Positions 29,778 to 34,354 are shown, numbered from the stretch's first letter. The stretch: 64,000 bases of DNA from Hydrogenophaga sp. (GCF_030656115.1 NZ_JAUSOO010000037.1:19025-83024); one strand, 5' to 3'. Numbers and translations: made by a program. Notes: generated by a model not told the origin, from the letters alone.

Positions 29778-31046
29778 TCAAGCGTCTTTCTCGCCCGCCT
29801 CGTACAGCGTCTCGCGGCCCATGCGGTCCAGAATCAGCTCGGCCGTCCAGGGCAGCATGAGGGCGCCGCAGCGGCTGTCGCGGTACAGGCGCTCCAGCGG
29901 CAGGTGCTTGAGCATGCTCTGGCCGCCGCAGGTGCGGATGGCCAGGCGGGCGATGTCGTTGGCGCCTTCCATGACGCTGTAGTGCGCGGCGTACAGGCGC
30001 AGCTTTTCGTCTTTGCTGGGGTTGGGCTTGGCCTCGGCAATGGCGCGGGCAAAGATGCTCTTCATGTTCTCCAGCTGGATGCGCATTTGCGCCACCGTGA
30101 TCTGTTTGGTGGGGAACTGGCGGCGCTTGATGGGCGGCTCGCCCTCCACTTCACCGCGCAGGTACTTCACGGTGAAGTCGTAGGCCGCGTTGGCCAGGCC
30201 CAGGTAGGTGGGCGAGAGCGTGAAGAACATGGCGGGCCAGGTTTGCGCGCCTTTGAAATAGATGCCGCGCGGCATGAGCTGTTCGGCGTCGCTCACGAAC
30301 ACGTCTTTGAACGCCAGGTTGCGGCTCACCGTGCCGCGCATGCCCAGCGGGTCCCAGTCGCCGCTGATGCTGAAACCGGCCGCCGTGGCGGGCACGCTGA
30401 TGTAGAGCGTATCGCGCGCGTCGGGGTGCTGGTCGCCCTTGTCTTCGGTGCAGAGCACGCCGTAATAGTCGGCCGCGCCGGAGAGGCTGGCCCAGATTTT
30501 CCGGCCGTTGACGAGCCAGCCACCGTCCACTTTTTTGGCGGTGGTGCCGAAGGGCGCGCGCCCGGCGGCGGCGGCCGTGCCTTCGCTGAAGGGCTGGGCG
30601 TAGATGGCGCCGTCGTTCACGATGCGCTTGAAATGCAGTTCGCGCCGGGCCAGGTGCTCAGTGCGCTGCTCGTCGGTCATGTCAATGCCGTCGGCCAGCA
30701 CACCGGTCCATAGGGTGCTGCAGATGTGCATGTTCCAGGTGAGCGCGGTGGCGCCGCAGAAGCGGCCGATTTCGGCGGCCACCATCATGTAGGTGGTGTA
30801 GTCGGCGCCCAGGCCGCCGTGGGCGGTGGGCACGCAGAGTTTCAGAAAACCGGCGTCGCGCAGGTCGTCGTAGTTGGCGAACGGAAAGCTGGCCTCGCGG
30901 TCCCACTGCGGGGCGCGGGCGGCAAACTGGTCGCGACCCAGGGCGTGCGCCTGGGCCAACAGCTCGCGTTGCAGCGGGGTGAAGGGCATGTCGCCCACGG
31001 CGGGGGTGAAGTCCAGGCCGGTGGTCGGGTTGATGGGCTGGTTCAT
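29778..31046 (-). CDS. Acyl-CoA dehydrogenase family protein (possibly a flavin-dependent monooxygenase component)
   Basis: PFSEG, VNGRKIWASLSG, WDPLGMRGTVS, GGQSMLKHLPLERLYRDSR. Confidence 0.85.
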   Translation of the reverse strand: MNQPINPTTGLDFTPAVGDMPFTPLQRELLAQAHALGRDQFAARAPQWDREASFPFANYDDLRDAGFLKLCVPTAHGGLGADYTTYMMVAAEIGRFCGATALTWNMHICSTLWTGVLADGIDMTDEQRTEHLARRELHFKRIVNDGAIYAQPFSEGTAAAAGRAPFGTTAKKVDGGWLVNGRKIWASLSGAADYYGVLCTEDKGDQHPDARDTLYISVPATAAGFSISGDWDPLGMRGTVSRNLAFKDVFVSDAEQLMPRGIYFKGAQTWPAMFFTLSPTYLGLANAAYDFTVKYLRGEVEGEPPIKRRQFPTKQITVAQMRIQLENMKSIFARAIAEAKPNPSKDEKLRLYAAHYSVMEGANDIARLAIRTCGGQSMLKHLPLERLYRDSRCGALMLPWTAELILDRMGRETLYEAGEKDA

Positions 31047-31075
31047 GGGGCTTGTCTCCTCGGGTTCGGGTGTGG

Positions 31076-31888
31076 TCAGTGGGTGTCTGGCAGCGGCTTG
31101 GGCGTGGGCTCGCGCAGAAAGTCGAGCAGCAGCGCATCAAACTCGTCGGGCGCTTCCAGGTTCATCAGGTGGCCGATGCCGGCGAGTTCGGCGTAGCGCG
31201 CGCGCGGGATCGCCGCCGCCATCTGGCGCATCACGGCGGGCGCGGCCACGCGGTCGAACTCGCCGCCGATCAGCAGCGTGGGCACGCGGATGTGGGCCAG
31301 ATCGGCCTGCCGGTCGAACGTGACCAGGCATTCCAGCGCACGCCGGTAGGTGGCTGCGGGCACGCTGGCCATGCAGTGCTCGGCCAGCTTCAGCCCCTCG
31401 GGCAGCGAGCCGGGGCCGACCATCTGCGGCACCAGCCGGGCGGCCATGTCGGCCATGGTCTGGCCCGCGTCCAGCGGCGCGGTGCGCTGGGCAATGAACT
31501 GCTGCGCCCAGGCCTCGGCGCTGCGCCCGTCGGTGCGCTTGCCGAACGCGGCCGAAGTGCCGCACAAGATGAGCTTGTTCACTTTGTCCGGGCGGCGGGC
31601 GATGACTTCTTGCGCCACCATGCCGCCCATGCTGTGGCCCAACAACGTCACGTTGTCGCACTGCAAGGCGTCGATCAAGTCCACGCAGCGCTGCGCCAGG
31701 CCTTTGAAGCCGTACGGCTCAATGGGCGCGCTGCGGCCATAGCCGGGCATGTCCCAGGCCACGGCGCGAAAGCCCAGGCTGGCCAGCGTTTCCACCTGCG
31801 GCGCAAAGGCGCGGTGACCGCCGCCAATGCCGTGCAGCATGAGCACGGTGGGGCCACTGCCCAGGGTGGTGAATTTGGGCAAAGTCAT
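31076..31888 (-). CDS. Alpha/beta hydrolase
   Basis: LHGIGG, WDMPGYGRS, GHSMGG nucleophile elbow, GEFD, GHLMNLE. Confidence 0.9.
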   Translation of the reverse strand: MTLPKFTTLGSGPTVLMLHGIGGGHRAFAPQVETLASLGFRAVAWDMPGYGRSAPIEPYGFKGLAQRCVDLIDALQCDNVTLLGHSMGGMVAQEVIARRPDKVNKLILCGTSAAFGKRTDGRSAEAWAQQFIAQRTAPLDAGQTMADMAARLVPQMVGPGSLPEGLKLAEHCMASVPAATYRRALECLVTFDRQADLAHIRVPTLLIGGEFDRVAAPAVMRQMAAAIPRARYAELAGIGHLMNLEAPDEFDALLLDFLREPTPKPLPDTH

Positions 31889-31991
31889 AAGGCCCCCTTG
31901 CGTTCCGGGCTTCCGCCCGGCCCGGGGCTGGTCGCTTCGCGTACTGCGCTGCCCCCCGAGGGGGCTGGCCTTGCTTGGGGCGGCCCGGCGC
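31889..31991. repeat. Intercistronic structured repeat element, copy 1
   Basis: CCCCCCGAGGGGG hairpin and TGGGGCGGCCCGGCGC tail; related copy at 59796-59868. Confidence 0.6.
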
Positions 31992-32000
31992 GGCGGCTGG

Positions 32001-33053
32001 TCATGCTGCCACCACCCGGCCCGCGTCCACCACCACCGTGCCGTCCAGCGTCACGGTGCAGCCGCGCAGGGGCCAGTCGAAATGGCCGCGGGTGTAGCGG
32101 CCGGCGGTTTCGTTGGCGCCGGTGCTGTAGAGAAAGTTGCCGGCAAAAGCGCGCAGTTCGGTGCCGTTGAAGTCGCGCTTGTCGTACAGCGCCATGCTGT
32201 CCCAGCGCGCGGCGTCGTTCAGGCCGTAACCCACGTGCGACACGGCGTAGGCCTCTGGCTCGTCCCAGGCGGCGAAGTGCGAGCGCAGCAACTCGGCGTC
32301 CACGCCCGTGCCGTCGATCCGGGTCACGTAGTCGTTTTCAATCGTCAAGGTGATGGCGCGTTCGATGTAGCGCTTGAAGGTCAGGTTCACGTCGCCTTCG
32401 GCCAGCACCAGGGTGCCGTTCACGCTGCCCGCCGCCGGGAACGCCAGCACCAGGCCGCCGGGCCAGTGGGTGAGCGTGCCGGGGCGGGTGGTGCTGCCCC
32501 AGTTGCCGCCAGCCACCGCGCCGGGCAGTGCGATCGACAGGTCGGTGCCCGCCGGCGAGGTCACGCGCATGGCCTGGGCCGCGCGCAGGCGTTTCACATG
32601 CGCTTTCACGCGGGCTTCGGTGGCGTCGTCGGGCAGCAGCCGGGCCAGCGCTTCGGGGTGTTCGTTGCTGATGTACACCACGCGCGGCTGGGTGATGCCG
32701 TTGCCCTGCAAAATGGCGGGCAGCTCGGGCGCGTGCATGAGGCCCTCCACCGTGCAGTCCACCACCAGGGTGCAGGCGGCCAGCGCGGCCACCACCGGCG
32801 CCAGTTGCTGAATGGCGGGCGTGGCGCCGGTGGAGCGCGTCACCGGCTCACCGGCGCTGAACACCGAGGGCAGCGTGAGCGTGAAACTGTAGGCGCCCAC
32901 CCGGGCCACGGCCAGGCGCGCCAATTCCATCAGCACCGGGCGGCTTTGGGTTTCACCGAGAATGGCAACGGTGTCACCGGGTTGCAACGCACAGCGGCAC
33001 AACACGGTCTCAAACGCATCGATCCAGGCGGGTTCGGTCCGCTCTTGCAACAT
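32001..33053 (-). CDS. NicX-family (2,5-dihydroxypyridine 5,6-dioxygenase-like; often annotated M29/leucyl aminopeptidase) protein
   Basis: LMHAPE, HWPGG, SHVGYGL, RAFAGNFLYSTGANE and GHFDWPLRGC match NicX motifs recalled from P. putida, including the His/His-x-Asp iron ligands. Confidence 0.8.
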   Translation of the reverse strand: MLQERTEPAWIDAFETVLCRCALQPGDTVAILGETQSRPVLMELARLAVARVGAYSFTLTLPSVFSAGEPVTRSTGATPAIQQLAPVVAALAACTLVVDCTVEGLMHAPELPAILQGNGITQPRVVYISNEHPEALARLLPDDATEARVKAHVKRLRAAQAMRVTSPAGTDLSIALPGAVAGGNWGSTTRPGTLTHWPGGLVLAFPAAGSVNGTLVLAEGDVNLTFKRYIERAITLTIENDYVTRIDGTGVDAELLRSHFAAWDEPEAYAVSHVGYGLNDAARWDSMALYDKRDFNGTELRAFAGNFLYSTGANETAGRYTRGHFDWPLRGCTVTLDGTVVVDAGRVVAA

Positions 33054-33174
33054 AAAAGGCTCCTTGAGAAATGCACGCCCCACGCACCGGAGCGTTGACC
33101 GGGTGGTGCCCCGCTGGCTTGATGCCGGGCAGGACACCGCCTATTATTGATGAATTTTCATATAAATAACACCC

Positions 33175-33696
33175 ATGTCCCCTGCCCGTTCTGCCGGCCA
33201 CCAGGCCCGACCCCCCGACTTTTCATCGCGCGAATTCCGTGCCTCGCTGGGCATGTTTGCCACCGGCGTCACCATCGTCACGGCGCGCACCGCGGCGGGT
33301 GAGCTGGTGGGCCTGACCGCGAATTCGTTCAACTCGGTCTCGCTGGCCCCGCCGCTGGTGCTCTGGAGCCTCGGCCGCGCGGCGGGCTCCATGGCCGCGT
33401 TTTCCAACGGCAGGCACTACGCCATCAACGTGCTGGCGGCCGACCAGCAAGCCCTGGCCGAGCAGTTCGCCGCCAAGGGCACCGACCGCTGGGCCGGCGT
33501 GGCGTTCACCGAAGGCATCAGCGGCGCACCGCTGCTGGCCGGCGCGGCCGCCACGTTTGAATGCTTCAACCGCAGCCAGTACGCCGAGGGCGACCACGTG
33601 ATTTTTGTGGGCGAAGTGGAGCGCTGCGCCCACCGCGCCGAGGCGTCGCCCCTGCTGTACCACGGCGGCAAGTTCTACACCGAGCACCCCCTCTGA
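33175..33696 (+). CDS. Flavin reductase (HpaC-like)
   Basis: FRASLGMFATGVTIVT, TANSFNSVSLAPPLVLWS, GDHVIFVGEV, PLLYHGG. Confidence 0.93.
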   Translation: MSPARSAGHQARPPDFSSREFRASLGMFATGVTIVTARTAAGELVGLTANSFNSVSLAPPLVLWSLGRAAGSMAAFSNGRHYAINVLAADQQALAEQFAAKGTDRWAGVAFTEGISGAPLLAGAAATFECFNRSQYAEGDHVIFVGEVERCAHRAEASPLLYHGGKFYTEHPL

Positions 33697-33725
33697 ACAT
33701 GGCCATTCTCCGAAACGCGCGCAGT

Positions 33726-33842
33726 GCCCCCATCCCCACCTGCCCCCAGCGGGGGACGGGGTCAGACATCCTCACGGTCAAACGCCTGGGTGCGCACATG
33801 TCTTGGCTCCCTCCCCCGCTGGGGGAGGGCTGGGGTGGGGGC
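33726..33842. repeat. Inverted pair of 36-bp REP-like palindromes
   Basis: GCCCCCATCCCCACCTGCCCCCAGCGGGGGACGGGG (33726-33761) and the reverse complement of 33807-33842, GCCCCCACCCCAGCCCTCCCCCAGCGGGGGAGGGAG. Confidence 0.8.
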
Positions 33843-33895
33843 CTGCGTCACCAGACGGCGGTTGATCGTGATGTGTTTTGGCGGCCCTTTTCAAA

Positions 33896-34354
33896 ATGAG
33901 GATGGCCGCTCTGAACTCGCCCCCTACCAGCAGCCCCCGCTTTGTGGACGACTACCTGGGCTACCTGCTGGGCCAGGCCAACCACGCGCTGTTCAAAGAC
34001 TTTGAGGCCGTGGTGCGCGCTGCCGGGCTGGGCTCGCTGGAATGGCGCGTGCTGGCCACACTGAGCGGCCAGGCGCCCATGCCCGTGGGCCAGTTGGCGC
34101 ACGAGGTGCTGAGCCAGCAACCCACCGTCACCAAACTGCTGCAGCGCCTGAGCGCGCAAGGCTGGGTGCACCTGAGCGACGACCCGCAAGACCAACGCCG
34201 CACGCTGGTGGCCATCACCGCCGAGGGGCTCGACAAAGTGCTCCCCCTGATGGCGCAAGCGCGCGAACACGAAGCCCAGACCCTCAGCGGCCTGAGCGCC
34301 GCCGAGGTGCGGCAACTCAAAAACCAGTTGCGCCGCCTCGCCCGCGCGGGTTGA
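33896..34354 (+). CDS. MarR family transcriptional regulator
   Basis: YLGYLLGQAN, EWRVLATL, QPTVTKLLQRL, DQRRTLVAIT. Start codon uncertain (33896 or 33902). Confidence 0.88.
   Translation: MRMAALNSPPTSSPRFVDDYLGYLLGQANHALFKDFEAVVRAAGLGSLEWRVLATLSGQAPMPVGQLAHEVLSQQPTVTKLLQRLSAQGWVHLSDDPQDQRRTLVAITAEGLDKVLPLMAQAREHEAQTLSGLSAAEVRQLKNQLRRLARAG

Follow-up and report, generated by a model that had tools for sequence, protein, structure and literature searches.

We analysed a 64,000-nt stretch of a Hydrogenophaga sp. contig (the window; positions are window coordinates unless a contig or locus is named) that carries a gene module headed by a homologue of NicX, a ring-cleavage dioxygenase of nicotinate degradation. 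On the minus strand, genes for the NicX homologue, an alpha/beta-fold serine hydrolase and a protein with the acyl-CoA dehydrogenase (ACAD) fold follow one another in that order, and genes for a flavin reductase, a MarR-family regulator and a DMT transporter run opposite to them on the plus strand. We consider the chances about even that this module is a MarR-controlled catabolic set for an aromatic or N-heteroaromatic acid, related to but distinct from the 2,5-dihydroxypyridine (2,5-DHP), or maleamate, branch of nicotinate degradation. The substrate is probably handled in part as a coenzyme A (CoA) thioester. The grouping of the genes is not due to chance, as the same arrangement is found in 80 Comamonadaceae loci and the triad of NicX, hydrolase and ACAD genes recurs in three more families of Burkholderiales. 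The triad is the invariant core of the module, with an ATP-dependent conjugating enzyme and a flavin reductase as recurrent accessories. An earlier reading of the region from its nucleotides alone (the sequence-only reading) had described the same six-gene layout; all six genes lie where it had placed them or directly beside, the transporter gene starting just beyond the end that it had set at 34354.

Fold, pocket and phylogeny of the NicX homologue

The NicX homologue is the sole copy in the genome. Its start was assigned to Met29 of the open reading frame at 32001-33137, which gives a protein of 350 residues. Pfam and NCBIfam profile scans returned no match for it, and its family was assigned by its PDB match (Table 1) and by precomputed PF26233 labels. 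The predicted model (predicted local distance difference test score, 91.4) keeps the M29-like fold, with template-modelling (TM) scores of 0.88-0.89 to 7CN3 and 7CUP. The iron ligands His265, Ser302, His318 and Asp320 (7CN3 numbering, used for all NicX residues) are shared by the window protein and all its module relatives, and the window protein also retains His105 and His189. With its fold and iron ligands kept, the homologue looks like a competent O2-dependent ring opener, which agrees with the sequence-only reading that it is a working dioxygenase.

The substrate pocket differs from that of canonical NicX, in which Glu177 is hydrogen-bonded twice to 2,5-DHP, at N1 and at O1; the E177A mutant has 2.7% of its activity left, and the strict specificity of the enzyme has been attributed to a His105-Glu177-His189 network (PMC7910607). 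This network of hydrogen bonds to the substrate is incomplete in the window protein, where both histidines are kept and Glu177 is replaced by Asn; further replacements are Val175-Thr176 by Gly-Gly, Leu104 by Met and Cys76 by Thr. The Glu177 position is occupied by Val or Gly in other Burkholderiales and by Thr in the alphaproteobacterial form of the module (described below). The glutamate is retained in the NicX sequences of both canonical clusters that we compared, on plasmids of Pseudomonas sp. BYT-5 (L113) and Cupriavidus pauculus (L114), and in several representatives on their branch. The substrate of the window protein is probably not plain 2,5-DHP.

These residues bear directly on the route put forward in the sequence-only reading. 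There, a free pyridine-type heterocycle would be hydroxylated by the ACAD-fold oxygenase and the reductase to 2,5-DHP or a close analogue, the NicX homologue would open the ring, and the hydrolase would deformylate or deacylate the resulting N-acyl-maleamate, all without CoA. We regard this route as rather doubtful. The Asn at the Glu177 position could, we infer, pair with the N-H and C=O of a lactam, but the residue needed to bind 2,5-DHP (PMC7910607) is lost, and the nearest outgroup forms have Val or Gly in its place. Because Glu177 is replaced across the forms of the module, a pyridine-type substrate is possible but not indicated.

Identity between the window protein and canonical NicX is 40-42%. 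A quick maximum-likelihood tree of the NicX family, with supports from the Shimodaira-Hasegawa-like approximate likelihood ratio test (SH-aLRT), unites the module sequences in a group of 26 rows (SH-aLRT 93) nested in a 37-row group (98) that is free of canonical NicX, and the canonical sequences fall in a separate group (98). The module proteins are members of the NicX subfamily that branch apart from NicX proper. The PGAP names follow the same division, the module proteins being called "peptidase M29" and the canonical ones "2,5-dihydroxypyridine 5,6-dioxygenase".

The family as a whole is large, with about 1,500 clusters at 50% identity in a representative search. The nearest relatives outside the module (P0125, P0130, P0136 and P0137) were considered as a clue to the substrate and set aside, as their gene contexts are unrelated (TctABC, a molybdopterin enzyme, or a hydrolase only). 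One further homologue, 58% identical to that of the window, is encoded immediately behind a tctCBA tripartite tricarboxylate transporter operon (L088, 4756-9050), with neither a hydrolase nor an ACAD gene adjacent to it; it forms a long branch inside the Comamonadaceae clade, and its His189 is replaced by Gln.

Composition of the module and its partner proteins

In all of the 80 Comamonadaceae loci fetched, the MarR and reductase genes face the NicX, hydrolase and ACAD genes wherever the contig extends far enough. These loci come from Hydrogenophaga, Ramlibacter, Caenimonas, Polaromonas, Rhodoferax and Acidovorax. The transporter gene stands beside marR in most of them, and a gene for an M14 peptidase follows the ACAD gene in roughly two thirds. 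A 300-genome sample of other Burkholderiales yielded 11 further ACAD orthologues, from three other families. In this outgroup the hydrolase gene is beside the ACAD gene in 11 of 11 loci, a NicX homologue is present in 10 (the eleventh gave no NicX match), an AMP-forming ligase gene follows the ACAD gene in six of the eight loci inspected, and the reductase gene is adjacent in one only; the order in the operon is NicX, hydrolase, ACAD, ligase. The alphaproteobacterial form occurs on Ensifer and Aminobacter plasmids, where a 50%-identical NicX homologue heads an operon that continues with an ACAD-family protein, a longer hydrolase, a TetR regulator, a glutamine-synthetase-like ligase and a flavin reductase, followed by an APC permease.

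The sequence-only reading had set the hydrolase beside the NicD deformylase, but the two are not orthologous. It is 22.6-22.8% identical to NicD of the two canonical clusters, and this low identity, together with its higher scores against PcaD models and 2XUA, rules out orthology with NicD. Its best PDB match is 2XUA, a 3-oxoadipate enol-lactonase, and it scores 133 bits against TIGR02427 (PcaD), below the cut-off of 255. A GHSMGG nucleophile elbow and the Asp and His motifs are present, so that the Ser/Asp/His triad is intact. Deacylase, thioesterase and lactonase are all conceivable activities of the enzyme. A route through a free heterocycle would be consistent with the fact that the hydrolase always follows NicX, as expected for an N-acyl amide product, but the distance of this protein from NicD counts against it. 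Some Comamonadaceae loci have an additional gene between those for the alpha/beta hydrolase and the ACAD-fold protein (L015, 9866-11107; L052, 9826-11076). It encodes a beta-lactamase-fold serine hydrolase (PF00144, ~415 aa), so the compound met in nature may be an ester or an amide.

The absence from the window of nicAB, nicC, nicE and nicF, and of nicD too, was confirmed: when the canonical cluster L113 was used as a tblastn query against the whole genome, only NicX matched this contig. Elsewhere in the genome, the best matches are 25% identical to NicD, 30% to NicF, 35% to NicC (beside a bicupin gene) and 64-66% to NicE. The last of these is a maleate isomerase orthologue, unlinked to the module, at C5:38511-39254, directly after the gene for a TctC-type binding protein (L109, C5:37480-39257); against NCBIfam it gave weak matches only, to EutA and arylmalonate decarboxylase models. 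The maleate isomerase speaks for the free-heterocycle route. Against this route, the whole-genome search found no orthologue of nicF, the maleamate amidase gene (best match 30% identical and BiuH-like). A stretch at C92:45472-52606 (L110) encodes a C-N hydrolase, two BiuH-like isochorismatase-family amidohydrolases, an ABC ATPase, a GntR regulator, a NicC-like flavin adenine dinucleotide (FAD) monooxygenase and a bicupin dioxygenase, and may combine gentisate-type and amide-hydrolysis routes. Its isochorismatase-family genes were rejected as nicF, being BiuH-like, and its NicC-like gene was rejected as nicC since it sits beside the bicupin gene and looks gentisate-type.

The ACAD-fold protein is the best conserved of the cluster (78-96% identity in Comamonadaceae). 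Its best PDB sequence match is 5Z8T/5GJ7 (E=4e-33), titled "Flavin-containing monooxygenase", with short-chain ACADs close behind. It reaches no NCBIfam equivalog cut-off (best 131 bits, against a cut-off of 600), and an ESM Atlas look-up returned generic ACAD clusters only. On alignment with rat SCAD, the position of the catalytic base Glu368 (MCAD Glu376) is Ala, and the alternative base position of LCAD and IVD (MCAD Thr255) is Met. Both base positions are lost, and the classical acyl-CoA dehydrogenase mechanism is therefore excluded; the most economical reading of the protein is as a putative reduced-flavin-dependent oxygenase.

The best NCBIfam match of the flavin reductase is to the N-terminal half of reductase C1 of the Acinetobacter p-hydroxyphenylacetate hydroxylase (175 bits), and the protein matches PDB 5ZC2 with E=1.5e-37. 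Its gene adjoins the module, in divergent orientation, in all Comamonadaceae loci, and a reductase gene lies inside the operon in one outgroup locus (L099), in Ensifer and in Aminobacter; in the alphaproteobacterial form and in L099 the flavin reductases joined the operon independently. The sequence-only reading had combined the ACAD-fold protein and the reductase into a two-component monooxygenase. The lack of a catalytic base in the former and the adjacency of the latter favour this pairing, and with it the free-heterocycle route, but reductase orthologues at 89% and 75% identity are kept in two relatives without NicX and ACAD, and the reductase is therefore probably not a dedicated partner of the ACAD-fold protein.

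A co-inherited ligase and the proposed pathway

The AMP-forming ligase of the outgroup operons has a counterpart in the window genome, at C174:8066-9511, and the two are reciprocal best hits at 50-54% identity. The best solved relative of the ligase is the feruloyl-CoA synthetase 8WEV (E=1e-92). In a set of one genome per genus, covering 151 genera of the family, the ACAD-fold protein was found in 25, the ligase in 25 and both in 20, the ligase being present in 5 of the 126 ACAD-negative genera. All 13 genomes of this set with an ACAD-fold protein of at least 74% identity contain the ligase, in seven of them on the same contig, 85-206 kb away. Related genomes are not independent, so these counts overstate the link between ligase and module and are suggestive only.

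The pattern of loss points the same way. The ligase is also missing from five members of the family that lack NicX and ACAD. One of them (G197) keeps the genes for MarR, the reductase, the hydrolase and the M14 peptidase, as well as the operator-like site described below, and NicX and ACAD are gone. At its NicX site there is a short frame (MLQDPNVPAWL...GRFDFPL; L120, G197:C12, 8938-9123) with similarity to the 13 N-terminal residues of NicX and to its C-terminal end; it may be a remnant, as if left by internal deletion, although the match is weak (13 codons, E=7). In a same-genus genome (G058), only the transporter, reductase and M14 genes remain at the site. These cases are suggestive of a joint loss of NicX, ACAD and ligase, with the reductase, the transporter and the peptidase surviving. 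The ligase is a more faithful partner of the module than is the flavin reductase. Its co-occurrence and joint loss point to CoA chemistry, which the sequence-only reading excluded; together with the persistence of the reductase without NicX and ACAD, they count against hydroxylation of a free heterocycle.

The same relatives might suggest that the genes are neighbours by descent only, with no shared pathway, since the transporter, MarR, reductase and M14 genes stay together as a backbone where NicX and ACAD are absent. We consider this very improbable. The triad is kept across four families of Burkholderiales and on alphaproteobacterial plasmids with different flanks, its genes are separated by gaps of only 29 and 112 nt in the window and overlap in relatives, and two of its members are lost together with an unlinked ligase.

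In the pathway that we propose, the ligase would activate the acid as a CoA thioester. The ACAD-fold protein would then use reduced flavin, from the neighbouring reductase or a different one, to hydroxylate the ring, leaving it in a para-dihydroxy or hydroxy-pyridone form. The hydrolase would remove the thioester or hydrolyse the ring-fission product, and the NicX-like enzyme would open the ring with O2; these two steps could come in either order. Both of the divergent promoters would be repressed by MarR and released when it binds the substrate or the thioester. A more specific version is offered tentatively, as a possible "hybrid" aerobic route in which the acid would be tethered (to CoA in Burkholderiales, and to glutamate by the glutamine-synthetase-like ligase in the alphaproteobacterial form), hydroxylated on the tether by the ACAD-fold oxygenase, released by the serine hydrolase, and opened by a NicX-subfamily enzyme with a substrate other than 2,5-DHP.

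Several points weigh against this pathway. In the window genome the ligase gene is on another contig (C174), unlinked to the module, and no copy of the operator-like palindrome was found upstream of it. In the alphaproteobacterial form the CoA ligase is replaced by a glutamine-synthetase-like one, so not all forms of the module depend on CoA. Foldseek searches with the ACAD-fold model gave TM scores of 0.67-0.75 for all matches, a range in which the dehydrogenases and oxygenases of the fold are not separable. A close orthologue of the reductase is absent from most outgroup genomes, in addition to being retained where NicX and ACAD are gone. We know of no characterised ACAD-fold hydroxylase of aryl-CoA esters, and literature searches combining NicX or 2,5-DHP with flavin reductase, ACAD or Hydrogenophaga found no paper describing the module.

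The ring could alternatively be prepared outside the module. A para-diol would be made elsewhere, for example by an aryl-CoA 5-hydroxylase of the SdgC/ACMR type, the NicX homologue and hydrolase would open and trim it, the aliphatic product would be taken further, as a CoA ester, by the ligase and the ACAD-fold protein, and the reductase would be an unrelated neighbour. In one family of Burkholderiales, a gene for an SdgC/ACMR-type FAD+OYE fusion and a second ligase gene do lie back to back with the module, beside its marR. The window genome has such a cluster of its own at C183:2043-10311 (L117), with genes for a TctC protein, a 794-aa FAD_binding_3+OYE fusion, a MarR regulator, an enoyl-CoA hydratase, a true ACAD and an AMP-forming ligase. 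We take the architecture of the fusion to be that of 2-aminobenzoyl-CoA monooxygenase/reductase and salicylyl-CoA 5-hydroxylase, and the C183 cluster is likely to encode a CoA-dependent aerobic route for anthranilate or salicylate. It has, however, its own ligase, hydratase and true ACAD. The hydroxylase is found in 91 of the 151 genera, including all 25 ACAD-positive ones and 66 of the 126 others; it is common in the family, so that this nesting is weak evidence, and it hints only weakly at a role of the module in extending the CoA-dependent metabolism of aromatic acids. The outgroup operon order, with ACAD and ligase last, and the retention of the reductase without the module would also fit a para-diol made elsewhere. 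An ACAD-fold protein without either base, however, cannot dehydrogenate an acyl-CoA in the known way, and reductases have been recruited independently into the operon in two other forms. On balance, preparation of the ring outside the module is unlikely, and we prefer hydroxylation by the ACAD-fold protein itself.

Control region, surroundings and relation to known systems

The MarR regulator matches TIGR02337 (HpaR) with E=3e-15, below the cut-off, and is weakly similar to the C-terminal, MarR-like half of reductase C1. The reductase and marR genes (33175-34354) match positions 5-156 and 180-308, respectively, of NF045919, the model of Acinetobacter reductase C1, and the pair looks like an unfused form of that two-domain protein. 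A scan for inverted repeats found no REP element between these two genes. The divergent intergenic region of 121 nt contains a conserved AT-rich element with a palindrome (consensus in Table 1; GATGAATTTTCATA in the window), which is kept in 24 of 24 other aligned Comamonadaceae loci (25 with the window) and overlaps a sigma-70-like match, TTGATG-17-TATTAT. The core of the palindrome occurs only twice in the whole 4.8-Mb genome. It also tracks marR, being kept in the relative that retains this gene (G197) and absent from the one that does not (G058), and is a good candidate for the MarR operator. The second copy of the core, ATGAA-NN-TTCAT, is at C65:65861, between genes for a glutathione S-transferase and a beta-keto acid cleavage enzyme (BKACE); it was set aside, as no link is evident.

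The features of the locus are collected in Table 1. The flanks in the window consist of the M14 peptidase gene, an OsmB-like lipoprotein gene, a two-component system and, on the right, an inserted islet, and domain scans of these flanks found no gene of catabolic appearance. The M14 peptidase persists in two relatives without the module and is probably a neighbour outside the pathway. The transporter gene is likewise present in two relatives that have lost NicX and ACAD.

Table 1. Features of the NicX-homologue module and adjacent genes in the window
Feature	Position	Strand	Evidence or location
M14/MpaA-like zinc peptidase, 299 aa	28697-29596	-	PF00246; MpaA model 84 bits, cut-off 157
ACAD-fold flavoprotein without catalytic base, putative reduced-flavin-dependent oxygenase, 422 aa	29778-31046	-	Acyl-CoA_dh N, M and C domains
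Alpha/beta-fold serine hydrolase, PcaD-like, 270 aa	31076-31888	-	PF00561, E=1.8e-30
NicX-subfamily Fe(II) ring-cleavage dioxygenase, 350 aa	32001-33053	-	Match to PDB 7CN3, E=4e-56
Operator-like palindrome, consensus CATGAA-NN-TTCATG	33149-33162	.	Divergent NicX/flavin-reductase promoter region
NAD(P)H:flavin reductase, 173 aa	33175-33696	+	PF01613, E=1.5e-39
MarR-family regulator, HpaR-like, 158 aa	33878-34354	+	PF01047, PF12802
EamA/DMT transporter, 300 aa	34427-35329	+	Two EamA domains

The module resembles parts of four known systems. With the nicX-nicD step of Pseudomonas putida KT2440 (7CN3, PMC7910607) it shares the M29-like fold, the His/Ser/His/Asp iron site and the two pocket histidines of the dioxygenase, a serine hydrolase gene directly beside the dioxygenase gene, and a MarR-type regulator nearby. 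The module NicX differs in its separate branch and in the replacement of Glu177 and of the two residues before it, and the hydrolase (23% identical) is not NicD. There is no nicC, nicAB or nicF, the nicE orthologue is unlinked and paired with TctC, and the partners are instead an ACAD-fold protein and an AMP-forming ligase.

A second likeness is to the p-hydroxyphenylacetate 3-hydroxylase of Acinetobacter baumannii (C2/C1; PDB 5ZC2), as the N-terminal half of C1 is what the module reductase most resembles, and the next gene, marR, corresponds weakly to the C-terminal half. In the module, however, the reductase and MarR are separate genes, the match of the ACAD-fold protein to the C2 model is weak (E=7e-13, ~95 residues), and the expected product is a para-diol rather than a catechol. 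The C2 oxygenase is 422 residues long, the same as the ACAD-fold protein.

The proposed logic, in which a ligase, ring hydroxylation on the thioester, thioester hydrolysis and para-diol cleavage follow one another, is that of CoA-dependent aromatic 5-hydroxylation, as in the SdgC salicylyl-CoA 5-hydroxylase of Streptomyces sp. WA46 and the 2-aminobenzoyl-CoA monooxygenase/reductase of Azoarcus evansii. Here the hydroxylase candidate has the ACAD fold and is not an FAD+OYE fusion, and the ring opener is of the NicX type rather than a cupin gentisate dioxygenase. Finally, the hca hydroxycinnamate cluster of Acinetobacter baylyi ADP1 encodes a ligase (HcaC), an ACAD (HcaD), a MarR regulator (HcaR) and an esterase (HcaG). 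The module has counterparts of these in its feruloyl-CoA-synthetase-like ligase, ACAD-family protein, esterase-type hydrolase and MarR, but its ACAD-fold protein lacks the base, it has no enoyl-CoA hydratase/aldolase, and a ring-cleavage dioxygenase is present. This analysis adds to the earlier picture that the Comamonadaceae form has an unlinked, co-inherited ligase and that the reductase persists when the module is lost, together with the conserved operator-like site and the residue-level contrast with canonical NicX and NicD.

To our knowledge, NicX is the only characterised ring opener of its fold, and it is reported to accept 2,5-DHP only. The subfamily found in the module lacks the residue reading the pyridone nitrogen and invariably has an ACAD-fold flavoprotein and a hydrolase as partners. 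The question of its substrate is directly testable, as the module is carried by culturable strains (Hydrogenophaga taeniospiralis, H. palleronii, H. flava, H. intermedia S1 and Caenimonas sedimenti). Identification of the substrate would assign a function to a module often met in Burkholderiales of fresh water and soil and on the plasmids of rhizobia. It would also test whether NicX-type enzymes cleave non-pyridine rings, and might reveal an ACAD-fold oxygenase that works on a CoA-tethered aromatic ring. If the hybrid route is true, the role of NicX-type enzymes would broaden to the opening of para-diol rings in general, and aryl thioesters would be substrates of ACAD-fold oxygenases.

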